In this document: piece by piece, positions 24,499 through 54,212 of the stretch | Layout of the letters: every line of letters starts with the position of its first letter | Numbering within the stretch: position 1 is the stretch's first letter | Origin: Anaeromyxobacter sp. | Lineage (GTDB): Bacteria > Myxococcota > Myxococcia > Myxococcales > Anaeromyxobacteraceae | DNA: 61,571 nt | NCBI GenBank assembly: GCA_031427995.1 | Contig: JANPOM010000191.1 | Span: 1 to 61,571 of the forward strand | Direction of reading: 5' to 3' | The notes under the pieces: generated by a model | What the model was told of the DNA's origin: nothing | Database searches by the model: none | Seen by the model: only the letters and a program-made list of their open reading frames with translations | Translations under genes and position numbers: made by a program

Positions 24499-25314
24499 CT
24501 ACCAGTACTTCTCGGCGTGGACCTGGCCGGGACGCGACTTCTCGTGGGCCGTGAACCCCTCGGCGGTGAGCAGGGTGGTCACGTCCTCGATCATGCGTGG
24601 ACTGCCGCAGAGAAAGACGTGGGTGTCGGCCGCGAGCGGCTTCTTTCCGAAGGCCCTCTGCAGCGCTCCACCCTGCCAGAGCGACTGGACGTGGCCGACG
24701 GCGCCGCCCCAGGCGGTCGGCTCCTCGCCGGGCCGGCTCACGATGGGCAGGTAGATGAAGTTGGGGCAGATGCGGGCCAGCGTGGTCAACTCCGCGGTGT
24801 AGCCGAGGTCCCAGGAGTGGCGCGCGCCGACCAGCACGGCGAAGCGGCGGTTCGGGTTGGAGGTGATCCCGGTGCGCAGCATGCTCATGTAGGGAGCCAG
24901 GCCGGTGCCGGTGGCCACCATCACCACGTCCTGGTTGGCGGGCACCTCGGCCAGCGTGAAGAGGCCGGTGATCTTCGGTCCCAGCCAGACCTTGGCGCCC
25001 GGCTGGAGCGCGAAGAGGCGAGGCGTCAGCTCGCCGGAGCGGACCAGGGTGAGGAAGAGCTCGAGGTGCTCGCCCGGGAGCGACGGCGAGGCGATGGAGT
25101 AGGCGCGGCGGATGAACCGCTCCGGGTCGGCTCCCGGCTCCTCGGGATCAGCCAGCGGCGTGCGCGGCGCGCTGGCCGGCAGCCCCACCACCGCGAACTG
25201 GCCTGACTGGAATACCGGCATGGGCCCCGACTCGGGGGCGATGCGCAGCACCATCAGACCTGGCGCCAGGTCGATCCGCTGGGTCACCACCGCGTTGAGC
25301 TCGAACTTCTTCAC
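24499..25314 (-). CDS. fpr: ferredoxin-NADP+ reductase (Fpr type)
   Basis: FAD motif RAYSIASP, NAD(P) motif MVATGTGLAPYMS, C-terminal ...AEKYW. Confidence 0.85.
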   Translation of the reverse strand: MKKFELNAVVTQRIDLAPGLMVLRIAPESGPMPVFQSGQFAVVGLPASAPRTPLADPEEPGADPERFIRRAYSIASPSLPGEHLELFLTLVRSGELTPRLFALQPGAKVWLGPKITGLFTLAEVPANQDVVMVATGTGLAPYMSMLRTGITSNPNRRFAVLVGARHSWDLGYTAELTTLARICPNFIYLPIVSRPGEEPTAWGGAVGHVQSLWQGGALQRAFGKKPLAADTHVFLCGSPRMIEDVTTLLTAEGFTAHEKSRPGQVHAEKYW

Positions 25315-25326
25315 GGGGCGAAGCGC

Positions 25327-26391
25327 TCACTTCCGCAGCAACTCGTCGAGCAGTTCCTGCTGGGTGACGATCTTGTGCCGCAGCATGATTCGCAGCAGCG
25401 CGGCCGCCACCTGCGAAGGCTTGACCGGAAGCGGAACCTCGTCCTGCCCGGCCGCCAGCCGCTCCAGCGCGTCGAGGACCACGACCTCCTTGGGCGTCAG
25501 CGCCCGGAGGGCGATACGCCCCTCTACCGCCTCCTCCTCCAGCAGCTGCTCGTCGAGCTGCGGCGGGATGGGGTGCGGGGCGGGGCGGGGTACCGGCGTG
25601 GCGATCGGCCGGGCCGGCGGCGGCGTCACCACCGGGTGGCTGCCGGTGGCGCGTGGCGAGGCTGCGGGCTGCGCCGAGGCCAGCGGGATGGGGGTGAGCT
25701 GGAGCTCCTCGGGGGTGTCCCGGTGCGAGAAGCCGCCGCGCGGGACCGAGCCGAGCAGCTCGTTACGCGCCTCCCGGTGCGGCCCACTGGGAGCGGCGGC
25801 ATGCGTTCCGCCCTGGCGCGGCTCCGCCTCCAGCTGCTTCTCGAGCAGGTCGGCGCTTCCGCCGCCGAAGGGATCGGCCAGTGGCGGCAGGAACTCACCG
25901 CTCACCTCGGTGTCGAGCGAGATGGACTCGATCCGCATCGGCTCGGTGGAGGGGTAGTGGGCGCGGATGGCCTCGGCGATCTCCCGGTCTCCGCCGATGC
26001 AGACCTTGATCCGCTTGTTGGTGCGGAAGCGGAGCTCGTCGGCGATGGCGAGGTTGGTCGGGTCGGCCATGGCCACGGTGAGCGAGGCGTGGTCGGCCGC
26101 CATGGGGAAGACGTTGTGCCGTTCGGCGAATTCCCGGCCCACCAGCTTGAGCGCCGACTCGAGCGCCTGCCGCTCCAGCGCCCCCAGCCTGGCGACCTCG
26201 AACCCGAGCTTGCGGGCCAGCGCCTGGACGATGGTGGGTTCGGTGGTGAGTTTCAGGTCGAGCATGGCCTGCCCGATCCGGCCTCCCCAGCGCCGCTGGT
26301 GACCCAGCGCCGACTGGAGCATGGCCTCGTCGATCACGCCCGCGTCGATGAGCAGCTCTCCCAGCCGTTTCTTGATCGCCATCGAAGACAA
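25327..26391 (-). CDS. stand-alone MshEN/T2SSE_N-domain protein (predicted c-di-GMP receptor) with Pro-rich linker and unknown C-terminal domain
   Basis: Residues 9-32 RLGELLIDAGVIDEAMLQSALGHQ, then a 5-residue spacer, then residues 38-61 RIGQAMLDLKLTTEPTIVQALARK. This reproduces the tandem 24-residue MshEN c-di-GMP motif. No ATPase domain follows. Confidence 0.8.
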   Translation of the reverse strand: MSSMAIKKRLGELLIDAGVIDEAMLQSALGHQRRWGGRIGQAMLDLKLTTEPTIVQALARKLGFEVARLGALERQALESALKLVGREFAERHNVFPMAADHASLTVAMADPTNLAIADELRFRTNKRIKVCIGGDREIAEAIRAHYPSTEPMRIESISLDTEVSGEFLPPLADPFGGGSADLLEKQLEAEPRQGGTHAAAPSGPHREARNELLGSVPRGGFSHRDTPEELQLTPIPLASAQPAASPRATGSHPVVTPPPARPIATPVPRPAPHPIPPQLDEQLLEEEAVEGRIALRALTPKEVVVLDALERLAAGQDEVPLPVKPSQVAAALLRIMLRHKIVTQQELLDELLRK

Positions 26392-26481
26392 TCTAACCCC
26401 GCACCCCGGCCGGGTCGAGTCGGCGAACGCCCCATTCCCCCCCTCGGGGGCGGCTGACGATATCGGCGGGGCGGGGCGTCG

Positions 26482-26940
26482 CTACTTCACGCCCTCGCCG
26501 CGGGTGGCGATGGCCAGCCGCTGCAGTCCGAGCCGGCGCGCCAGGTCCATCACCGCCACCACCCGGCCGTGGGCCACGCCTTCGTCGGCCTGCACCAGCA
26601 CCAGCGTGTCGGGGTTCCTCTCGGCCGAGGCGGTCAGCATCGAGCGCAGCTCCTCCTCCTCGACCACCTTGCCGCCGATCACCACGCGCCCGTCGGAGAG
26701 GATGGCGATGGAGAGATCCCGCGCCGCCACCGAGTCGCCCTTGCCACCCTTGGGCAGCGTCACCTTGAAGCCGCCCCTGTCCGCCCCGGCCTCGGTGATG
26801 GCGGTGGTGGTCACCATGAAGATGATGAGCAGCACCAGGAAGATGTCGGTGAGCGGCGTGATGTTGATGTCGGCGAAGATGGCGCCGTCGCTGTCGCCCT
26901 CGCCCTCGTTGGCGCCGCCGCTCGGGCCTCCCGTCGCCAC
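26482..26940 (-). CDS. ExbD/TolR-family biopolymer transport protein
   Basis: GTG start 2 nt after the exbB-like stop. ...ADINITPLTDIFLVLLIIFMV (TM) ...LVQADEGVAHGRVVAVMDLARRLG. Confidence 0.8.
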   Translation of the reverse strand: MATGGPSGGANEGEGDSDGAIFADINITPLTDIFLVLLIIFMVTTTAITEAGADRGGFKVTLPKGGKGDSVAARDLSIAILSDGRVVIGGKVVEEEELRSMLTASAERNPDTLVLVQADEGVAHGRVVAVMDLARRLGLQRLAIATRGEGVK

Positions 26941-26942
26941 GG

Positions 26943-27644
26943 TCAGCCCTCCCCGCCGGCGGCCCGGGCCGGACCGCCCGCCCGCAAGGTCGGCAGCAGC
27001 TCTCTCACCAGCTCGAGGTACTCCTCGGTGAGGAGGCGGAGCTGCAGGGTCAGCTTCTGGGCGTGGGTGTTGAGCGCGTTGAAGAGCACCACCGCCAGCA
27101 CGGCGACGGCGATGCCGGCGGCGGTGGTGATGAGGGCCTCGGAGATGCCGGCCGAGACCACCGCGAAGCCGCCCTGCCCGGTCTGGGCCATGTCGTGGAA
27201 GGCGTTCATGATGCCGACCACGGTGCCGAAGAGGCCGACGAACGGGGCGGTGGCGCCGACGGTGCCGAGCATCCAGAGGCCACGCCTCAGCCGCAGGTTG
27301 ACCCGCTGCCGCTCGCGCTCCACCGCCGCCGCCAGCCGGTCGGGGTTCGGCTCCCCGGCCGGCCGGCCGGAGAGGGTTCCGCCCTTGGGGCCGAGGGCCA
27401 CCAGCGCCGCCAGGAAGACTTCGGCGGCCATCGAGCCGGAGCGCTCGCACTGGGCCCGGCCGTCCTCGAGATCGCCGCGGAAGAGGGCCCGGCCGACCGC
27501 GTCGGCCAGCGACCTCGCCTTGTCGCCGAAGGCCCACAGGGCGATGGCCCGCTCCACGGCCACCGCCACGGCGATGACCGAGCAGGCGATGATCACCCAG
27601 AGTGAGAAGCTCGCCTTGACGAGCTGGAGGAGGTTCTGGTCCAC
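26943..27644 (-). CDS. MotA/TolQ/ExbB-family proton channel protein
   Basis: 233 aa. LGTVGATAPFVGLFGTVVGIMNAF...EALITTAAGIAVA is typical of ExbB/TolQ. Confidence 0.85.
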   Translation of the reverse strand: MDQNLLQLVKASFSLWVIIACSVIAVAVAVERAIALWAFGDKARSLADAVGRALFRGDLEDGRAQCERSGSMAAEVFLAALVALGPKGGTLSGRPAGEPNPDRLAAAVERERQRVNLRLRRGLWMLGTVGATAPFVGLFGTVVGIMNAFHDMAQTGQGGFAVVSAGISEALITTAAGIAVAVLAVVLFNALNTHAQKLTLQLRLLTEEYLELVRELLPTLRAGGPARAAGGEG

Positions 27645-27677
27645 GGTGGCTCCGATGCGCTGCGGTGAGAGGAGATG

Positions 27678-28475
27678 CTAAGGCGGGGCGTCGTCGAGAT
27701 CCACGACCCGCGCCCCATGCGGCGGCGTGAGCAAGAAGAGGGAGGGATCGACAGGGCCGTTGACCTCCAGCTCACGCCAGTGGAGCGAGAAGGCGACGCC
27801 GGCCTCGGGGACGCGCGCCGCCAGGTCGGTGGGGACCCGCTGGCCGGCGCGGGTGCGGTGGACCGAGAACTCGGCGTCGAGGCCGGCCGGCACCTCGCCG
27901 CCCGGCGCGACCCGGCGCTGGCGCGCCGAGAGCAGCGCCGCGCCCGGCCCGACCTCGAGCCGCTGCACCAGGTCGCCTTCACGAATAGTGAGGAGGACGC
28001 TCCCTTCGGCCGGCTCGGCCGACACCGGCTGGCCGTCCAGCAGCGGCGCCGAGCCGCAGAGCAGCGTCACCAGCGCCTCGGGCGTGACAGCCACCGGGAT
28101 GAGGCGGGCCAGGTTGGCGGGGGTGGCGGCGCCGCGAAGGAAGGTCCGCTCGCGGGCGTCGTAGAGCGCCAGCCTGCCGCCCTCGACCGCCAGCGAGGCC
28201 ACCACGTTTCCGAAGAAGTCCTGCACCTCGACGCGCAGCCGGCCTGGCCGCTCGGCCACCAGGTACTGCTCGGTCCCCCCGGAGCCATTCGGCGAGTCGA
28301 CGCCGACCCGGGCCCGCCCCTGCACGCTCACCACCCGGGCTTGCGCCGCCCGCACCTCGCGGAGCAGCTCCGCCGGGTCGAGCGAGAGGTCGGGAGGCGG
28401 CCGCCGCGGGTGGCAGGCGGCCAGCGCCACCAGGGCGCCGGCGGCGAGCCAGCCGGCGGCGGGGCGGAAGGTCAC
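27678..28475 (-). CDS. LolA/LolB-fold lipoprotein (DUF4292-like)
   Basis: Lipobox ALVALAAC. The beta-rich body resembles outer-membrane lipoprotein carrier/receptor folds. 4-nt overlap with the upstream gene. Confidence 0.55.
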   Translation of the reverse strand: MTFRPAAGWLAAGALVALAACHPRRPPPDLSLDPAELLREVRAAQARVVSVQGRARVGVDSPNGSGGTEQYLVAERPGRLRVEVQDFFGNVVASLAVEGGRLALYDARERTFLRGAATPANLARLIPVAVTPEALVTLLCGSAPLLDGQPVSAEPAEGSVLLTIREGDLVQRLEVGPGAALLSARQRRVAPGGEVPAGLDAEFSVHRTRAGQRVPTDLAARVPEAGVAFSLHWRELEVNGPVDPSLFLLTPPHGARVVDLDDAPP

Positions 28476-29647
28476 GCCTGCTCCAGCGCCTGGGTGAGAT
28501 CGGCCAGCAGGTCGCCGGCGTCCTCCAGCCCCACCGAGACCCGCAGCAGCCCGCGGTCGATGCCCTGGGCCTTCAGCTCGGCCTCGCTGGCGTTGCGGTG
28601 CGAGGAGATGACCGGGATTGAGGCCAGGCTCTCCACGCCACCCAGCGAGGATGCCCGGGCCACGATCCGCAGCGCGTCGTGGACCCGGCAGCAGGGTTCG
28701 AAGCCGCCCTTCACCGAGAGCGAGAGGACGCCGCCGCCGCCGCGCAGCAGGCGGCGGGCCAGGTCGTGATCGGGGTGCGAGCGCAGGAACGGGTAGTGGA
28801 CGCGGGCCACCTTGGCGTGGCTCTCCAGGGCCTCGGCGAGGCGCAGCGCGGTGGCGTTCTGCCGTTCGATCCGGATCTCGAGGGTCTTCATGCCGCGGAT
28901 GAGGTCATAGGCCACCGCCGGGTCCATGGTCCCGCCGGCGGTGCGCCGCACCTCCAGAACCGGCGCCAGCAGCGCCTTGTTCCCGGCCACCACGCCGGCC
29001 AGGTGGTCGCAGTGGCCGTTGAGGTACTTGGTGGCGCTGTGGATGATCAGGTCGACGCCCAGCGTGGCCGGCCGCAGGTTGACGGGGGTGGCGAAGGTGG
29101 CGTCGACCAGGGAGAGGATGCCCCGCCGCCGGCAGGCCGCCGCCACCGCGGCCATGTCGACGACGCGGAGGGTCGGGTTGGTGGGGGTCTCGAAGAGCAG
29201 CGCGCGGGTGCCGGGCGGCGCGGCGGCCGCGCTCTCGGCCAGCCGTTCCAGGGGCACCTCCACCACCTTGACGCCGAAGCGGGTGAGGATGGTACGGGCC
29301 AGCCGGGTGGTCTGCCCGTAGATGGTGTCCGCGATGAGGAGCGTATCTCCGGCCGCCAGGTGGGCGATCAGCGCGGCGTGGATGGCCGCCATGCCCGAGG
29401 CGAAGAGGACGGCCTGCTCGGTCGCCTCCAGCAGTGCCAGCTTTCGCTCGGCGGCGATGACGGTCGGGTTCTCCAGCCGCGAGTAGAGCCACTTGCCCTC
29501 CGGGGCGTCGAGGTAGGCGGCCGCCGCCGCGGCCGAGTCGAAGCGGTAGGTGGTGGTCTGGTAGATGGGCGTGCCGACCGCCGGGACGTTCCAGACCTGG
29601 TCCTCGCCACCGTGGACCGCCAGGGTGCCGAACTTCTCGTTGGCCAT
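28472..29647 (-). CDS. Cys/Met-metabolism PLP-dependent enzyme (cystathionine gamma-synthase/lyase family)
   Basis: PLP-lysine motif IHSATKYLNGHCD. C-terminal RVSVGLED. Confidence 0.85.
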   Translation of the reverse strand: MANEKFGTLAVHGGEDQVWNVPAVGTPIYQTTTYRFDSAAAAAAYLDAPEGKWLYSRLENPTVIAAERKLALLEATEQAVLFASGMAAIHAALIAHLAAGDTLLIADTIYGQTTRLARTILTRFGVKVVEVPLERLAESAAAAPPGTRALLFETPTNPTLRVVDMAAVAAACRRRGILSLVDATFATPVNLRPATLGVDLIIHSATKYLNGHCDHLAGVVAGNKALLAPVLEVRRTAGGTMDPAVAYDLIRGMKTLEIRIERQNATALRLAEALESHAKVARVHYPFLRSHPDHDLARRLLRGGGGVLSLSVKGGFEPCCRVHDALRIVARASSLGGVESLASIPVISSHRNASEAELKAQGIDRGLLRVSVGLEDAGDLLADLTQALEQA

Positions 29648-29678: not shown

Positions 29679-30563
29679 TTAGAACAGGCGCGCCTTCTTG
29701 TCGAGCCACTCCCGGGCCCGGCGCCGGGCCACAGCCTGCTCCGCGGCTCGCTCCAGCGCGGCCGGCGCCGCCAGCACCTCGCCGAGCAGCCGCTCGAAGG
29801 CGGCCCGATCCTGCAGCAGCACCGCCAGGGTGCGGGCCTCCTCTACGCGCCGCCAGGGCTCGTCGGGGAAGAGCTGGGCGGCCCGGTCGAACCGGGCCCG
29901 CGCCGCCGCCACCCCACCGCCGGCCGCCGCCGGCAACATGGCCGACCAGGCCCCCAGCGCCCGGAGCGGCCCGCCCGCCTCCAGGGTCTCGTCGAGCGTC
30001 GCGGCGCGCTGGAGCAGCGGCAGGGCGTGGTCCTTGACCGCCAGCACCGCGGCCGGGCCGGTCCCCTGCGCCACGCCGAGCCGGCCGACCGCCAGCCAGT
30101 AGAGCGGCTCGGCGCCGGGCCCGTCCACCAGCGCCGCGGCAGCGGAGGTCGAGCGCCCCTCGGCGAGCGCCTCGGCGAAGCGGGGCGTGAGCGCGGCCAG
30201 CGCCCGCTCGGCGGCGCGCGACGAGGCGTCGTGCGCGGCCAGCGCCTCGGCCGGCAGCTCGGCGGCCAGGGCGCGAAACCCCTCACCCCGGGCCAGCCGC
30301 AGCTCGATCTCGGGCTGGCCCGGCCTGGCCGGGGCGGCGCGCCGCCAGGCGGCGAGGGCGGCCCGCAGCTCGGCCGGCTCGCCGCGGCGGATCCAGGCGG
30401 CGTCTCCCTCGGCGAGGAGCGCCGCCGCCGCCTCGCGGCTGACTGGGGCCGGCGCCACCGGCGCGCCTGGGCAACCGGCCAACGCCAGCAGCAGGCCGAG
30501 CCCCAAGGCGCATCCCATGACCCCCGGCCGTGGCATGCGCCTTCGAGCGCGGCGCGGCGCCAT
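29679..30563 (-). CDS. helical-repeat lipoprotein (TatT/TPR-like), function unknown
   Basis: Lipobox LLLALAGC. Ala/Leu-rich helical repeats. Start uncertain (possibly MGCALGLG at 30518). Confidence 0.5.
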   Translation of the reverse strand: MAPRRARRRMPRPGVMGCALGLGLLLALAGCPGAPVAPAPVSREAAAALLAEGDAAWIRRGEPAELRAALAAWRRAAPARPGQPEIELRLARGEGFRALAAELPAEALAAHDASSRAAERALAALTPRFAEALAEGRSTSAAAALVDGPGAEPLYWLAVGRLGVAQGTGPAAVLAVKDHALPLLQRAATLDETLEAGGPLRALGAWSAMLPAAAGGGVAAARARFDRAAQLFPDEPWRRVEEARTLAVLLQDRAAFERLLGEVLAAPAALERAAEQAVARRRAREWLDKKARLF

Positions 30564-30565
30564 CC

Positions 30566-31444
30566 CTACTTCCGCTTCTTGCTGGCCGGCTTCCTCGGCG
30601 CCGGCTTCCTGGCCGCCACCCGCTTGGCGGCGCTCTTCGGGCCGGCCTTCCTCGGCGTGGACCTCTTCGCGGCCGGCCGCCTGGCCACCTTTTTCACGGC
30701 GGCCTTCTTTCCGGCCGGCTTCCTGGCCGACTTCTTCGCCGCGGCCGTTTTCGGCGCGGACTTCACGGGCATGGGCCTGGCGCTGACGACCACCCTGGGC
30801 GCGGGCCGGGCTACCGGGTTGACCCGGGCCACCACGGGCAGCGGCGGTGTGGGCGGCGCGAGTGGCCGTGCCGGCTGGAGCGGGCGAGGCACCATGGGTG
30901 GCCGCTGCGGCTGGGCCCGGCTCAGGCGGGCCAGGCGCGCCTCTTCCTCGGCCTGGGTGACGTGGAGCGGCGGTTGGCCGGCCCGCTGGCGGGTCTCGTC
31001 CTCCGCGGAGTAGTAGAGCTGATAGCTGGCCAGGCCGCGAGTCACCAGCTCGCCGCGCTGGTTCTCGGCCCAGAGTTCGAGGTCCATGGTGTAGGTGTCG
31101 CCGGCCTCGAAGCGGCGCTCCACCACCCGGCCACGCGCCGTGAGCACGTCGCCAGGCCAGATGAACTTCACGAGCCGTGACTGGAGCCTCTTGAGCCTGG
31201 CGCCGCGGGTCCAGTCGGCGGCCAGCTCGGCGAGGAAGCCCATTCCGATGGTGCCGGGCGCGAAGGCGCTGGGGAACCCGGAGGCGCGGGCGTGCGGCTC
31301 GTCGATGTAGAGCGGGTTCCAGTCGCTGGCGGCGCCGACGTAGCGGGCGATCTGGAGCCGGTCGACCGGCGGCTTGACGAGCGGGGGCAGCTCGTCGCCC
31401 ACCTTGACGGCCTCGAAGTAGAGCTGGCGAACGTTGAGCGTCAT
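30566..31444 (-). CDS. MaoC-like (R)-hydratase hot-dog domain fused to Pro-rich linker and histone-H1-like Ala/Lys/Pro C-terminal tail
   Basis: N-terminus YVGAASDWNPLYIDEPHARASGF (hydratase-2-like motif with Tyr in place of the canonical His). C-terminus ...KSAPKTAAAKKSARKPAGKKAAVKKVARRPAAKRSTPRKAGPKSAAKRVAARKPAPRKPASKKRK. Confidence 0.8.
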   Translation of the reverse strand: MTLNVRQLYFEAVKVGDELPPLVKPPVDRLQIARYVGAASDWNPLYIDEPHARASGFPSAFAPGTIGMGFLAELAADWTRGARLKRLQSRLVKFIWPGDVLTARGRVVERRFEAGDTYTMDLELWAENQRGELVTRGLASYQLYYSAEDETRQRAGQPPLHVTQAEEEARLARLSRAQPQRPPMVPRPLQPARPLAPPTPPLPVVARVNPVARPAPRVVVSARPMPVKSAPKTAAAKKSARKPAGKKAAVKKVARRPAAKRSTPRKAGPKSAAKRVAARKPAPRKPASKKRK

Positions 31445-31450
31445 GTTCCG

Positions 31451-31888
31451 CTACCCCCGCCGAAGGATGAAGGTGGCCCGCGCCTTGAATACCAGGACAC
31501 CCTGCTCGTCGCGCCCCTCGTCCTCGATGACGATGACGTCCATCGGGCCGCTGGCGCCGGAGCGCTCCTGCACGTCGGCCACCTTGCTGCGCACGGTGAG
31601 CCGATCGCCGGCCACGATGGGCCGGCCGAACTCGAAGGACTGCTCGCCGTGGAGCATGGAGCGGGTGCCGAGATCGAGTGAGTGGCGGAAGCGCTCACCC
31701 CAGCCGAGGGTGAGCGCGAAGGTGGACGGCGCCACCAGCCCTGGGTAGCCGGCGGCGCGGGCCGCCGCCTCGTCGAGCGCCAGCGGGTTGGGGTCGCCGA
31801 GCGCCTCGGCGAAGCGCCGGATGGCCCCCTTCTCCACCTCGTGGAGGACGGGCTCGCTGACCCGGCCGATGAGGGACTTGTCGAGCAT
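31451..31888 (-). CDS. MaoC_dehydrat_N-type hot-dog protein (HadA/HadC-like partner subunit)
   Basis: 145 aa. KGAIRRFAEALGDPNPLALDEAAARAAGYPGLVAPSTF. 7 nt upstream of the MaoC gene. Confidence 0.78.
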   Translation of the reverse strand: MLDKSLIGRVSEPVLHEVEKGAIRRFAEALGDPNPLALDEAAARAAGYPGLVAPSTFALTLGWGERFRHSLDLGTRSMLHGEQSFEFGRPIVAGDRLTVRSKVADVQERSGASGPMDVIVIEDEGRDEQGVLVFKARATFILRRG

Positions 31889-33013: not shown

Positions 33014-33097
33014 CAACCGTCCACATGGCTGCCTGGCTGTGACCGGGCGCGTCAAGCGGCGGTATTGCTTGGTGCTTCCTTGCTGGGCGACCTCACT

Positions 33098-33796
33098 TCA
33101 GCCACCGATGAGCCGCTCAAGCAGCTCCCTGGCCGAGGGCTGAGACCAGTCCATTTCACCGATGACGTAGGCGGCGATTCGGCCAGACTTGTCCACGATG
33201 TAGCTCTCCGGGAACTTCACGTCGTCGGGAGAACAGGCGCCTCGCCCGGTGCAGTACCAGGCCCGGACCGTCGTCCTGCCGTCGGGGTCGAGCGCCACCG
33301 TGACCTGCGGCGGGAGACGGCCGCCCTGCTCCGGGCTCCTGAAGAACTGCCTCACCAGGTCGGCCGATTCGTCGACCGAGACCGCCACCATCTTGAACTT
33401 GCCCGGATGACGCGCCGCCAGCTCCCGTCCCAGCTTCACCATGCTCGGCATCTCGGTGCGGCAGGGCGGGCACCAGGTGGCCCAGAAGTTGACGAAGACC
33501 ACCTGCCCCCGGGCCGTGGTCAGATCGAAGTGGCCGCCGTCGACGGTCGGAAGGCTGAGGGGCGGAGCCAGCGGCGCCGTCCTCGAGAGCAGCAACTGGC
33601 CGAAGACCGCCGGCTCGGCGGGCGAAGCGGCGGAAGGCTGGGCCGGCGTGGCCACCATGGGCGACATGGCGCTGGTGAGCTGCTCCACCTGGTGCGTCGC
33701 GTCCCAGGCCTTCCAGCCCGCGGCGGCGAGGAGCACCAGGAAGACGGCGCCGGCGACGAGCTGTTGCCGGGGCCATTTCGGATCGGTCTCAGCCAT
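33098..33796 (-). CDS. TlpA/ResA-family thiol:disulfide oxidoreductase (membrane-anchored)
   Basis: TM anchor VAGAVFLVLLAAAGW. Redox motif VNFWATWCPPCRTEMP. Confidence 0.85.
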   Translation of the reverse strand: MAETDPKWPRQQLVAGAVFLVLLAAAGWKAWDATHQVEQLTSAMSPMVATPAQPSAASPAEPAVFGQLLLSRTAPLAPPLSLPTVDGGHFDLTTARGQVVFVNFWATWCPPCRTEMPSMVKLGRELAARHPGKFKMVAVSVDESADLVRQFFRSPEQGGRLPPQVTVALDPDGRTTVRAWYCTGRGACSPDDVKFPESYIVDKSGRIAAYVIGEMDWSQPSARELLERLIGG

Positions 33797-33862
33797 GATT
33801 CGCGCTTATGCCACGGACCCGTCACTTGCCGCCACCGGGCCGGCGGGCGAGACTCCCTCCAC

Positions 33863-34981
33863 ATGCGCGGCCTGATGGGCAGCTTCGCGATCCTCCCGCT
33901 CGGCGACCTGCTCGAGCTGCTCTCCCGGCGCGGGCTGGCCGGGACCCTCACCTGCGAGCGCGGCACGGTGCGCAAGACCATCCAGCTGGCCGGCGGCAAG
34001 GCGTTGGGGGCCTCCTCCAACGACACCCGCGACCAGCTCGGCCAGCTGCTCGTCAACTTCAACCACCTCGACGAGGCGGCGCTGCAGCGGGCCATCGAGA
34101 CCCAGAACGAGACCCAGGTCCGGCTCGGGCGCGTGCTCACCATGACCGGCCTGGTCACGGCCGAGGTGCTCCGCGACGTGCTGGCCTTCAAGGTCCGCGA
34201 GACGCTTCTCGACGTCTTCCTCTGGGAGTCGGGGGTCTTCCGCTTCGACGACTCACCGCCGGCCCTGGTCGACGAGTTCGACACCGCGGGGGCGATCGCC
34301 GAGGTGCTGAGCGAGGCCGAGTTCCGCACCACCGCCTGGTCGGCCTTCCGCGGCGAGTTCCCCAGCGGCGTGGGCACGCTCGAGGTGGACGACGCCAAGG
34401 TGCCGCCCTCCATGACGCCCGACACCGTCGACGGCCGGCTGCTGGCGCTGGCTCGCGAGGGGAGCACCATCGACGACCTCGGGCTGGCGCTGCGCTCCTC
34501 CGACTTTCACCTCTACCAGCGGCTTTACGCCCTCTCGCGCCAGGGGATCATCCGCCCGGCGCCGGCCAGGTTCTCCAGCGGGATCCGGGCGCGCAACGAG
34601 ATCAGCGTGGCCGAGCTGATCGAGCGGGCCCGGGGGCTGCTGGCCGACGGCCTCGCCGACGACGCCGAGCTGATCGCCGCCCGCGCCGTGGCCCTGGCGC
34701 CAAGCTCCGGCGAGGCCCACGACCTGCTCATCGAAGCCGAGCGGCTCCTCGCCCAGACGCTGCGCGACGACCTGCTCGAGCCCGGCCGGGTGGCGCGCCG
34801 CTCCATGGGCATGGGGGCCATCGCCGGACTCAAGCTCTCCAACGTCGACAAGTACCTGCTCTCGCGCTGCGACGGGCAGCGGACCGTGAAGCAGCTGGCC
34901 CAGCTGGCGCCGCTGCGCGAGCTCGACGTGCTCAAGGCGCTCAAGCGGCTGGCCGACGGAGGCGTGGTCGAGCTGGGGTGA
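33863..34981 (+). CDS. DUF4388 (PatA-N-like) domain protein
   Basis: Start MRGLMGSFAILPLGDLLELLSRRGLAGTLTCERGTVRKTIQLAGGK (DUF4388 signature). The ORF-track 5' extension (33065..) is antisense to tlpA. Confidence 0.7.
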   Translation: MRGLMGSFAILPLGDLLELLSRRGLAGTLTCERGTVRKTIQLAGGKALGASSNDTRDQLGQLLVNFNHLDEAALQRAIETQNETQVRLGRVLTMTGLVTAEVLRDVLAFKVRETLLDVFLWESGVFRFDDSPPALVDEFDTAGAIAEVLSEAEFRTTAWSAFRGEFPSGVGTLEVDDAKVPPSMTPDTVDGRLLALAREGSTIDDLGLALRSSDFHLYQRLYALSRQGIIRPAPARFSSGIRARNEISVAELIERARGLLADGLADDAELIAARAVALAPSSGEAHDLLIEAERLLAQTLRDDLLEPGRVARRSMGMGAIAGLKLSNVDKYLLSRCDGQRTVKQLAQLAPLRELDVLKALKRLADGGVVELG

Positions 34982-51962: not shown

Positions 51963-54212
51963 TTGCACAAGCGACTCCGCCGCCAGCTCGCCGACCTGCT
52001 CGACGCCGACGAGGCCGCGCGCCCCGGGCTACGGCGCCTCTGGCGCGAGATCGACGCCGAGTACCTCAAGGCCGACCAGGATCGCTCGGCGCTGGCCCAC
52101 GCCCTCGACCTGGTGGGCGACCTGGTGCGCCGGCCGGCCGGTGGGGCCGAGGCGGCGCCAGCGCCGCGGGTCGGCGCCTCGCCGTTGCCCCGACTGCGCC
52201 GCCAGCTCTTCGAGCGCGCTCCCTTCGCCGCCTTCATCTGCGATCCACGGCTCGAGGTGCTGGCCTGGAACGGCTCCGCCGAGCGCCAGTTCGGGTACCG
52301 CGGCAAGGAGGCGGTGGGGCGCGAGCTGGGCGACCTGCTCTTCCCCGTGGCCGACCGGGCCCCGGTGCGGCGCGAGCTGCTGGGGCTCCTCGAGCGCGGC
52401 GAGGTGGACCAGTCACTGCGCGTCGCCGCCAGCAAGACCGGCGAGGCGCGGCTCGACGAGTGGACGGTGGTGCCCCTGCCGGACCAGGACGGCAAGCCCC
52501 TGGGCGCGGCCATCCTGGTGCGCGAGCCCTTCGCCTCCGATGACCGTTACGCGGTGGCCTGGCAGGGGACCGGCGACGGCCTCTTCGACTGGGACCTGCG
52601 CGCCGATCGGCTCTGGCTCTCCGACTCCTGGCTCCAGCTGGTGGGGCTCCCGCAGGGCTCGGGAGCACCCGGTGACTGGCTGGACCGCGTCCACTCGGCC
52701 GACCGCGAGGGAGTCCAGGCGGCGGTGCGGGCCCACCTGGCCAGCGGGTCGGCCCGCCTCGAGTGCGAGCACCGCGTACGCCACGAGAACGGTGAGTGGC
52801 GCTGGGTGCTGGCCCGCGCCGGGGCGGTGCGCGACGCCGCTGGCAAGGCCATCCGGCTCTGCGGCTCGATGATGGACGTCACCGAGCGGCGCGCCGCCGC
52901 CGACCGGGTGGTGCACGACGCCCTGCACGATCCGCTCACCCGGCTGCCAAACCGCACCATGTTCCTCGACCTGATGAAGCGGTCCTTCGCCCGCACCCGG
53001 CGGCGCGAGGGCTACGCCTTCGCCGTCCTCTTCCTCGACCTCGACCACTTCAAGTCGGTCAACGACGGCCTGGGCCACGCCGCCGGCGACGACTTGCTGG
53101 TGCAGACGGCGCGGCGGCTGCAGACCTGCCTGCGCGAGGGCGACACCCTGGCCCGGCTCGGCGGCGACGAGTTCACGGTCCTGGTGGACGACGTCAAGGG
53201 CGTGGTCGACGCCCAGGCCGTGGCGGACCGCATCCGCCAGGCCACCTCGCTCCCCTTCCTGATCGGTCCCCGCGAGGTCTTCTCGACCGTCAGCGTCGGC
53301 ATCTCCGTCTCCTCGCCGGCCTATGGCCGCCACGAGGACATGCTGCTCGACGCCGACACCGCCATGTACCGGGCCAAGGCCCAGGGGCGGGCACGCTGCG
53401 TGGTCTTCGACGGGAGCCTGCGCGAGCAGGCGCCCCAGCTCCTCGACCTGGAGACCGACCTGCGCGGCGCCTTGCAGCGGCAGGAGTTCCGCATCCACTA
53501 CCTGCCGGTGGTGGACGTCGCCACCGGTCACATCCAGGGGCTGGAGGCGCTGATCCGCTGGGCCCACCCCAAGCGTGGGATGATGGCCCCCGACCAGTTC
53601 GTCCCCTTCGCCGAGGAGACCGGGCTCATCGTGCCCATCGGCCGGTGGCTGCTGCAGCAAGCGGGCCGCGACCTGCAGCGCTTCCGCAAGGCCCCCAAGG
53701 CCGGACGCCTCGCGCTCCACGTCAACCTATCCTCCAAGCAGCTTATGCAAGGCGACCTGCTCAGCAACATCGACGACGTGTTCCAGGAGCACCAGATGGA
53801 GCCGGCCGACCTGGCCCTGGAGCTCACCGAAAGCGTCCTGCGCCAGTCGGAGGAGTCGCCGCGGCGGCTGGTCCAGCTCCACAACCGCGGGGTGCGGTTG
53901 CTCATGGACGACTTCGGGACCGGCTCATCATCGATCCGCTCACTGCACCAGTTCCAGTGCGACTCGGTCAAGATCGACCGATCCCTCTTCGCCGGCGGCG
54001 CGCCGCGCGGCGAGGCGCCAGAGCTGGTGCGAACCATCATGGCCCTGGCCCGCGACATGGGGAAGCCGGTGGTGGCCGAGGGCGTCGAGACCGCCGAGCA
54101 GTTCAAGTTCCTCCGCGAGATGGGCTGCAACTCCGCCCAGGGCTACTTTTTCTCTCCGCCGGTCGATGGCGATGCCGCCTACTCGCTGCTGGAGCGGCAG
54201 GCCAGCTGGTGA
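51963..54212 (+). CDS. PAS-PAS-GGDEF-EAL c-di-GMP turnover protein
   Basis: 749 aa, TTG start. GGDEF with an I-site (REGD-x5-GGDEF). EAL signatures EALIRW, LELTE, DDFGTG, VKID, EGVE. Confidence 0.9.
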   Translation: MHKRLRRQLADLLDADEAARPGLRRLWREIDAEYLKADQDRSALAHALDLVGDLVRRPAGGAEAAPAPRVGASPLPRLRRQLFERAPFAAFICDPRLEVLAWNGSAERQFGYRGKEAVGRELGDLLFPVADRAPVRRELLGLLERGEVDQSLRVAASKTGEARLDEWTVVPLPDQDGKPLGAAILVREPFASDDRYAVAWQGTGDGLFDWDLRADRLWLSDSWLQLVGLPQGSGAPGDWLDRVHSADREGVQAAVRAHLASGSARLECEHRVRHENGEWRWVLARAGAVRDAAGKAIRLCGSMMDVTERRAAADRVVHDALHDPLTRLPNRTMFLDLMKRSFARTRRREGYAFAVLFLDLDHFKSVNDGLGHAAGDDLLVQTARRLQTCLREGDTLARLGGDEFTVLVDDVKGVVDAQAVADRIRQATSLPFLIGPREVFSTVSVGISVSSPAYGRHEDMLLDADTAMYRAKAQGRARCVVFDGSLREQAPQLLDLETDLRGALQRQEFRIHYLPVVDVATGHIQGLEALIRWAHPKRGMMAPDQFVPFAEETGLIVPIGRWLLQQAGRDLQRFRKAPKAGRLALHVNLSSKQLMQGDLLSNIDDVFQEHQMEPADLALELTESVLRQSEESPRRLVQLHNRGVRLLMDDFGTGSSSIRSLHQFQCDSVKIDRSLFAGGAPRGEAPELVRTIMALARDMGKPVVAEGVETAEQFKFLREMGCNSAQGYFFSPPVDGDAAYSLLERQASW

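Follow-up and report, generated by a model that had tools for sequence, protein, structure and literature searches.

The flagellar brake YcgR, a PilZ-domain protein, is a soluble receptor for cyclic di-GMP (c-di-GMP) that sits on the cytoplasmic face of the MotA stator. We propose that a comparable receptor may serve a stator of another type in Anaeromyxobacter sp. (assembly GCA_031427995.1, contig JANPOM010000191.1, positions 1 to 61,571; these 61,571 nucleotides are the whole stretch analysed and are referred to herein as the window). Here a minus-strand gene encodes an MshEN domain followed by a disordered linker and a small helical C-terminal domain (CTD), and it lies downstream of an exbB-exbD pair and of a gene for a lipoprotein of the LolB fold. 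As with YcgR, the product would be a soluble c-di-GMP receptor on a 5:2 proton-driven stator, the interaction in this case being suggested by gene neighbourhood, but the PilZ and MshEN folds are unrelated and the stator is of the ExbB/TolQ or AglR type rather than MotA. The best reading of the locus, in our view, is that the MshEN-CTD protein responds to c-di-GMP in the cytoplasm and acts there as a regulator or adaptor of the ExbBD motor module, and to the full mechanism set out below we assign a probability of roughly 45%.

MshE, PilB, PilF and NfrB (Wang et al., 2016, PMC5013675; structures 5HTL and 8PDK) carry the same tandem motifs, the same five-residue spacer and the same two-subdomain fold as the window protein. 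Fusions of the domain to partners other than ATPases are already known, including REC, HD-GYP, CheA/CheX, cyclases and kinases (PMC5013675), as is its large expansion in myxobacteria, with up to 22 MshEN genes in M. xanthus (PMC5013675) and 17-22 MshEN proteins per myxobacterium, to few of which roles have been assigned (PMC5013675, PMC8844925). The remark in a first-pass annotation of this DNA that in known proteins the module precedes an ATPase of type II secretion (T2SS) or type IV pili (T4P) is hence incomplete, although such ATPases are indeed known. The window protein differs from all of these receptors in having no ATPase, glycosyltransferase or signalling domain and a long disordered linker and small helical CTD instead, and genes of its type adjoin MotA/ExbB-type stators, not pil or gsp genes. 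What is new is therefore not the receptor class, which is already known, but the CTD module and its twice-repeated association with 5:2 proton motors.

On the motor side, the locus resembles the ExbB-ExbD-TonB and TolQ-TolR-TolA systems in its complete ExbB and ExbD homologues with the membrane Asp and in the order exbB-exbD-X, but X is here cytoplasmic and without a TonB_C domain, and no gene for a TonB-dependent transporter, TolB or Pal is adjacent. AglRQS of M. xanthus (MXAN_6862-60; PMC3169522) is a myxobacterial TolQR-like stator that also has a neighbour of the MshEN-CTD architecture, which is divergently transcribed; the window stator differs from it in having a single ExbD beside its ExbB, where AglRQS has two, and in belonging to another clade. 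The lipoprotein shares the half-barrel (unclosed beta-barrel) fold of LolA and LolB, including the LolB of Bacteroidota (PMC11885536, PMC13103446; 9TPM, 1IWM), but its sequence similarity to them is below detection and its gene is clustered with exbBD. The features on which the argument turns are as follows, where AF2 is AlphaFold2 and pLDDT its predicted local distance difference test score.

27678-28475, minus strand: LolB-fold lipoprotein, 265 aa (AF2 and Foldseek)
26943-27644, minus strand: ExbB/TolQ-like protein, 233 aa (PF01618, 106.3 bits)
26482-26940, minus strand: ExbD/TolR-like protein, 152 aa (PF02472, 92.9 bits)
26390-26419, minus strand: conserved promoter-like element (alignment of orthologous spacers)
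25327-26391, minus strand: MshEN-linker-CTD gene, 354 aa from TTG, stop codon 25327-25329 (open reading frame, Pfam, NCBIfam, alignment of orthologues, AF2)
26209-26367, minus strand: MshEN_N, two tandem 24-residue c-di-GMP motifs (NF053729)
25942-26172, minus strand: MshEN_C subdomain, residues 74-150 (PF05157, pLDDT >90, Foldseek)
25504-25941, minus strand: Pro/Ala-rich disordered linker, residues ~151-296 (pLDDT, alignment)
25330-25503, minus strand: CTD, residues ~297-354 (AF2, hhalign, profile search)

An MshEN domain with a tail of its own

The first of the two c-di-GMP motifs, R9-Q32 in the numbering from TTG (26296..26367), is a perfect match to RLGxx(L/V/I)(L/V/I)xxG(L/V/I)(L/V/I)xxxxLxxxLxxQ, and the second, R38-K61 (26209..26280), departs from the strict consensus only by G47K, L49T and Q61K. 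They are separated by a spacer of five residues, RRWGG, and this arrangement is exactly as the first-pass annotation had described it; indeed, all of its statements on the sequence are correct except for the start codon (see below) and the remark on ATPases. The NCBIfam model NF053729 ('c-di-GMP_motif') matches residues 9-60 with 51.5 bits (cut-off 38) and Pfam MshEN PF05157 matches residues 74-150 with 73.6 bits (cut-off 23.1), the latter region, MshEN_C, being the alpha/beta portion and a homologue of the N1 domain of GspE/PilB; the NCBIfam model for the E. coli glycosyltransferase NfrB also matches. In an AF2 model built on an alignment of 20 orthologues, residues 5-150 have a pLDDT above 90. 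Foldseek, whose results for the full model are dominated by the N-domain, returns as top match MshE with c-di-GMP (5HTL; TM-score 0.79, root-mean-square deviation 2.9 A) and then the GSPII domains of PilF bound to c-di-GMP, with 8PDK and 7LKO among the matches.

The ligand-contacting positions are conserved as well. Across the 20 orthologues there is no variation at R9, G11, L14, G18, L25, L29, Q32, G40 or L58 and almost none at R38 and K61. The residues reported as critical in MshEN (PMC5013675) correspond here to R9, G11, L29, R38, G40, a hydrophobic residue at the L54 position, and L58, and they change little or not at all even in orthologues with only 41% identity. The genome contains seven GGDEF genes, one of them inside the window, and c-di-GMP is therefore made in the host. 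Judging from the sequence and the model, it is very probable that the MshEN-CTD protein binds c-di-GMP. A scaffold that has given up the ligand and uses the MshEN fold for protein-protein contacts only, or a pure c-di-GMP sink, would fit the deviations G47K and Q61K in the second motif, and binding has been lost in some MshEN homologues, such as XpsE (PMC5013675). However, the c-di-GMP motif model is passed with a margin, the critical residues are kept across the family, and the relaxed motif (PMC5013675) permits K at the last position, all of which makes a scaffold or sink a very improbable explanation.

The window also holds a second protein with a c-di-GMP motif, of 372 aa from MRGLMGSF..., at ~33.87-34.98 kb on the plus strand inside the open reading frame 33065..34981. 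It has the tandem 24-residue MshE-type motif with a five-residue spacer at residues 58-109 (NF053729, 46.4 bits, cut-off 38) and is without the MshEN_C subdomain. The GGDEF-domain gene of the window (diguanylate cyclase type) lies at 52920-53393 (+), in an open frame of 806 aa.

Neither a hydrophobic or transmembrane segment nor a signal peptide is present in the MshEN-CTD protein by sequence and AF2, and the protein is therefore placed in the cytoplasm. No ATPase domain is matched (TIGR02538 reaches 58 bits where 675 are required, and only over residues 10-154), and no PilZ domain is found with Pfam or NCBIfam. Beyond the MshEN domain, the Pro-rich spacer and C-terminal domain noted in the first-pass annotation are both present, the latter as a conserved domain of ~60 aa in the orthologue alignment. 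The linker, disordered in the model over residues 155-295, has a pLDDT below 50 over most of residues 158-294 and is highly variable in length, differing by ~200 residues among orthologues whose total lengths are 306-515 aa, and it includes short conserved motifs, EAI(A/S)LD...DPFGGGS and LLGxVPxGGF, which are candidate partner-binding peptides. These motifs (residues 155-220, ~25730-25930, minus strand) occur at different linker positions in distant orthologues.

The CTD is conserved whereas the linker is not. It is modelled as three helices (300-313, 325-338 and 344-353; pLDDT 70-82). By hhalign (probability 74%, E 2.8e-5) the last two of these match the second of the two 24-residue repeats in MshEN_N, without its Arg-Leu-Gly (RLG) start, such that the CTD appears to end in something like a third, degenerate copy of the repeat. 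When the CTD was scanned with Pfam, the only match was Arg_repressor (E 0.12, below cut-off), with none to TonB_C or TolA, and a sequence search of the PDB gave nothing beyond the MshEN domain. A profile built from 21 CTDs and searched against 1.84 billion representative proteins matched only 268 clusters. The match nearly always reaches the last residue of the protein, and 64 of the 76 matches of at least 240 aa have the MshEN motif at the start, the remaining matches being mostly N-terminally truncated fragments or proteins with the C-terminal MshEN subdomain only. The combination of MshEN, disordered linker and small dedicated helical tail is thus a family of its own, and the CTD, as judged from these profile matches, would be a previously undescribed small module nearly exclusive to MshEN proteins. 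The architecture is myxobacteria-restricted in searches for related loci whose patterns were specific to Anaeromyxobacteraceae and too narrow for other phyla.

The closest relatives of the window protein in both sequence and structure are the N-domains of PilB, PilF, MshE and XpsE, databases label its orthologues 'PilB' or 'GspE domain protein', and in solved complexes the MshEN domain binds PilZ (7LKO) or GspL (2BH1, 4PHT). It could therefore be argued that the protein serves T4P or T2SS as a decoy or accessory, a copy of the PilB/GspE N-domain that competes for c-di-GMP or for PilZ-, GspL/PilM-type partners and so tunes pilus-dependent motility. This is improbable, as the loci with genes listed have no pil or gsp genes nearby and instead conserve ExbBD, the LolB-like gene, AglRQS or genes of ATP-binding cassette (ABC) systems beside it, and a dedicated CTD suggests that the protein has its own output.

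The adjacent motor, the lipoprotein and the gene start

Directly upstream of the MshEN-CTD gene and on the same strand, as the first-pass annotation had it, are the exbB- and exbD-like genes. PF01618 covers the ExbB over profile positions 19-125 of 127 and PF02472 covers the ExbD over positions 6-126 of 128, the membrane Asp of ExbD is present (NITPLTDIFLVLL; within NITPLTDIF), and exbD starts 2 nt after the exbB stop. The pair does not reach the NCBIfam equivalog cut-offs for either TolQ/TolR or ExbB/ExbD, and it is for this reason regarded as a member of the superfamily that belongs to neither named system. In a tree of ExbB paralogues the window ExbB, that of A. dehalogenans and the LolB-adjacent ExbBs of Myxococcaceae and of family f3 form one clade (support 99/98), which is separate from the genome's TolQ, from its two TonB-adjacent ExbBs and from the AglR clade. 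The TolQ of this genome adjoins TolR and a TolA-like gene. Contigs C388 and C198 of the genome each carry a triple of one ExbB and two ExbDs, neither with an MshEN neighbour; the C388 triple is the AglRQS orthologue (65% identity to the AglR of Myxococcaceae) and that on C198 a more divergent second set.

The order exbB-exbD-X, together with a Pro-rich spacer and a small C-terminal domain, mimics the layout of TonB, and the first-pass annotation put the protein in a 'TonB/TolA slot'. Taken mechanically, this would mean a Pro-rich region that spans the periplasm and a CTD that meets an outer-membrane partner. We reject such a replacement of TonB or TolA as scarcely conceivable, since the protein has no signal peptide or transmembrane helix and hence no membrane anchor, its N-terminus is a cytoplasmic nucleotide-binding domain, and neither TonB_C nor TolA is matched; the ~200-residue differences in linker length among orthologues and the absence of this gene order outside Anaeromyxobacteraceae also speak against it. 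The accompanying idea of a c-di-GMP-gated accessory of a stator fares better, in that the protein is a very probable receptor and the linkage of its gene to a MotA/ExbB-type stator goes well past what chance would give.

Upstream of exbB and in the same direction, the 265-aa lipoprotein has the lipobox LAAC with Cys21 invariant in the alignment, and its AF2 model (pLDDT 91.8) matches the P. gingivalis LolB 9TPM in Foldseek at E 1.7e-11, as well as E. coli LolB (1IWM, TM-score 0.78), 2W7Q and many LolA structures. The LolA/LolB fold that had been proposed for it is thereby confirmed, even though by sequence there is no Pfam or NCBIfam match and only DUF2092 (E 0.12) and LolA 2W7Q (E 0.89) appear. 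The gene is present in single copy in 115 of the 121 genomes of the order, which belong to nine families (f1-f9) and underlie all order-wide counts herein, and this near-universal single-copy distribution is, for a fold known from a model, compatible with the role of a lipoprotein receptor. To our knowledge, no LolB has been described in Myxococcota, nor do we know of any LolB that is clustered with ExbBD. The protein is thus a candidate for the LolB of Myxococcota or for a new ExbBD-coupled factor that handles lipids or lipoproteins.

Alignment of orthologous spacers between exbD and the MshEN-CTD gene reveals a promoter-like element of the form CTCGACC-N17/18-TA(G/C)(G/A/C)AT (TCGACN-N17/18-TAnnnT) in 57 of 71 loci, at a distance of 3-16 nt from the start codon and mostly of 6-12 nt. 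In the window it reads CTCGACC, 17 nt, TAGATT, with the -10-like hexamer at 26390-26395, 7 nt before the ATG at 26382. The TTG at 26391 falls within this conserved hexamer, which is why the start is probably ATG 26382 and the protein 351 aa rather than 354. On the same sequence grounds the mRNA of the MshEN-CTD gene is most likely leaderless or near-leaderless and made from its own predicted promoter. A generic scan for sigma-70 promoters and terminators gave nothing useful in this DNA of 72% G+C, and the element is seen only when orthologous spacers are aligned. A search of the exbD-MshEN gap and of the whole region of 24.0-32.5 kb against Rfam, taken up to E = 1, gave no match, and a riboswitch or other RNA element there was rejected on that basis.

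Gene neighbourhoods in the family and across the order

The genes for ExbB, ExbD and the MshEN-CTD protein are contiguous in all 59 of 59 species-level loci of Anaeromyxobacteraceae that include the upstream flank, with the LolB-like gene sometimes several kb away and the downstream genes variable. In other myxobacterial families, too, MshEN-CTD genes are clustered with the LolB-like gene and an ExbB of the window clade, but the order exbB-exbD-MshEN is confined to Anaeromyxobacteraceae. In Myxococcaceae (L120, L121) a short MXAN_4667-like MshEN-CTD gene, identified as such by the N-terminal sequence in the supplement of PMC5013675, comes after the LolB-like gene. Behind it stand a longer MXAN_4666-like gene, whose CTD (…ASLIRLLIRKGLIQELEFLEELARK) resembles that of the window protein, and then ABC ATPase genes. 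The exbB-exbD pair orthologous to that of the window is here transcribed in the opposite direction, away from the LolB-like gene. In A. dehalogenans 2CP-1 (CP001359.1, L127 11587-12870) a DDE transposase gene lies directly downstream of the MshEN-CTD gene and marks the end of the conserved block.

Across the order, the window ExbB clade is represented in 113 of 121 genomes. The LolB-like gene is within 2.5 kb of the clade ExbB in 81 genomes (f1 29/31, f2 1/1, f3 9/9, f4 9/13, f5 2/4 and f6 31/31) and within 10 kb of an MshEN-CTD gene in 77 genomes (f1, f3, f6, f7 and, with 26/30, f8), and ExbBD, LolB-like and MshEN-CTD genes are all clustered in f1, f3 and f6. The LolB-like gene is hence the hub of these neighbourhoods, with ExbBD, MshEN-CTD genes or both at its sides.

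The second association involves a different orthogroup of the same architecture, a separate clade in the MshEN tree (97/81 support) that is MXAN_6863-like by the N-terminal sequence in the supplement of PMC5013675 and has an intact motif (58-68 bits on the c-di-GMP motif model). Its gene is divergent from aglR, with a gap of 190-535 bp, in 31 of the 41 genomes that have both (f6 26/26, f3 4/4, f2 1/1, f4 0/7, f5 0/3), and the adjoining set comprises one ExbB-like and two ExbD-like genes whose size and order match AglR, AglQ and AglS. Such divergent pairs are seen, for example, at L122, L123, L124 and L125, in Myxococcaceae and two other families. FrgA was considered as a known relative and set aside, its motif being degenerate and its sequence different (supplement of PMC5013675). 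A literature search for MshEN together with ExbB found nothing.

In the window, on a contig of an Anaeromyxobacteraceae metagenome-assembled genome, the genes discussed above belong to a tight minus-strand string that runs from ~31.9 kb to 24.5 kb with intergenic gaps of at most 33 nt, the exception being the 90 nt from exbD to the MshEN gene. Its other members are:

31451-31888, minus strand: MaoC-type hot-dog hydratase 1 (gene string)
30566-31444, minus strand: MaoC-type hot-dog hydratase 2 (gene string)
29679-30563, minus strand: TAtT-like tetratricopeptide repeat (TPR) protein with a lipoprotein-like signal, LAGC (PF16811, 83.4 bits)
28472-29647, minus strand: Cys/Met-metabolism pyridoxal phosphate enzyme (gene string)
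24499-25314, minus strand: ferredoxin-NADP reductase (gene string)

The TAtT-like TPR gene remains beside the LolB-like gene across Anaeromyxobacteraceae; it is a syntenic neighbour, and whether it is part of the module is uncertain.

A proposed regulator of 5:2 proton motors

A functional link between MshEN-CTD proteins and motors is indicated because two orthogroups of one rare architecture each adjoin a different stator clade. We infer a mechanism in which the N-terminal MshEN domain would bind c-di-GMP through its two tandem 24-residue motifs and the protein would dock from the cytoplasm onto the adjacent proton motor, which is of the ExbB5-ExbD2 type. The docking site would be the cytoplasmic domain of ExbB (or AglR) or the N-terminal tail of ExbD because these are the only parts of the motor that can be reached from the cytoplasm. 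The CTD would serve as the output or docking part, and the linker motifs, the CTD or both could make the contact. The response to c-di-GMP would then switch the motor, or its assembly, on or off, and the periplasmic part of ExbD would act on the co-clustered LolB-fold lipoprotein, since synteny suggests that it is this lipoprotein, not TonB or TolA, that forms the periplasmic end of the machine. The MXAN_6863-like sister orthogroup would do likewise for the AglRQS gliding motor.

Several observations weigh against this proposal. The second motif has K, not G, at position 47. No gap in the string is larger than the 90 nt after exbD, and this one holds the conserved promoter-like element, so that obligate co-transcription with exbBD is doubtful and separate regulation possible. 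The synteny in Anaeromyxobacteraceae also covers the unrelated flanking genes for MaoC, Sir2 and ApaG, and contiguity within the family counts for little alone because the whole region is syntenic. Outside it, the ExbBD clade is not near MshEN-CTD genes in f7, f8 and f9, the MshEN-CTD genes of f2, f4 and f5 have neither ExbBD nor the LolB-like gene nearby, and in f4 and f5 the MXAN_6863-like gene is not beside aglR. The pair of MshEN-CTD genes adjoins Opp/Dpp-type ABC ATPase genes in f3, f5, f6 and f9, and in f7 an ABC permease is nearby. A literature search for MXAN_6863 and MXAN_4665-4670 found no mention of them. Finally, the annotated absence of a TonB or TolA gene holds for the window contig, where a search of the genome with TonB_C (PF03544) gave no match, but an orphan TonB-family gene with an N-terminal anchor is found elsewhere in the genome (C291:19087-20244; TIGR01352 36.9 bits, cut-off 27.1). 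The canonical partner whose existence elsewhere the first-pass annotation had named as grounds for refutation therefore has a candidate, and the window ExbBD might serve it in trans.

The ABC genes form the basis of a further explanation, namely that the protein is a c-di-GMP receptor whose target is not the stator, most plausibly the ATPases of Opp/Dpp-type ABC importers, and that its position after exbD is a rearrangement remnant of an old syntenic block. An MshEN-CTD gene or pair adjoins ABC ATPase genes in L034, L035, L037, L042, L120 and L121, with binding-protein and permease genes on the other side of the pair in L034 and L037. The gene's own promoter-like element, the synteny of the whole region in Anaeromyxobacteraceae and the uncoupling of ExbBD from MshEN-CTD in f2, f4, f5, f8 and f9 would all be expected on this account. 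Yet Anaeromyxobacteraceae retain the gene without adjacent ABC genes, the f8 loci L036 and L041 retain LolB-like and MshEN-CTD genes without them, and next to the MXAN_6863-like paralogue nothing but aglRQS is conserved, ABC genes being absent. We thus judge an ABC target to be rather unlikely and favour regulation of the ExbBD motor. In the same six loci the short and long MshEN-CTD genes are in tandem, within or abutting the importer operon, and in the fullest cases the pair stands between the ABC permease and ATPase genes.

More generally, we suggest, and only tentatively, that proteins of the MshEN-linker-CTD type are dedicated c-di-GMP regulators of the ExbB/TolQ/AglR-type 5:2 motors of Myxococcota, one orthogroup acting on AglRQS and another on a hitherto unrecognised, TonB-independent envelope machine of ExbBD and the LolB-fold protein, which might represent an energised step in the handling of lipoproteins or lipids. 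The present analysis defines a new small C-terminal module that accompanies MshEN and names candidates in model organisms, MXAN_6863 beside aglRQS and MXAN_4666/4667 beside the LolB-like/ExbBD cluster. It also points to an ExbBD clade that seemingly works without an adjacent TonB or TolA and with a LolB-fold lipoprotein. Should the proposal be correct, this would be the first c-di-GMP receptor on ExbB/TolQ-type stators, parallel to YcgR and MotA, and would add a sixth or seventh type of output to the 5:2 motor superfamily, and it bears on the routes by which c-di-GMP acts on machines of the envelope besides type IV pili.

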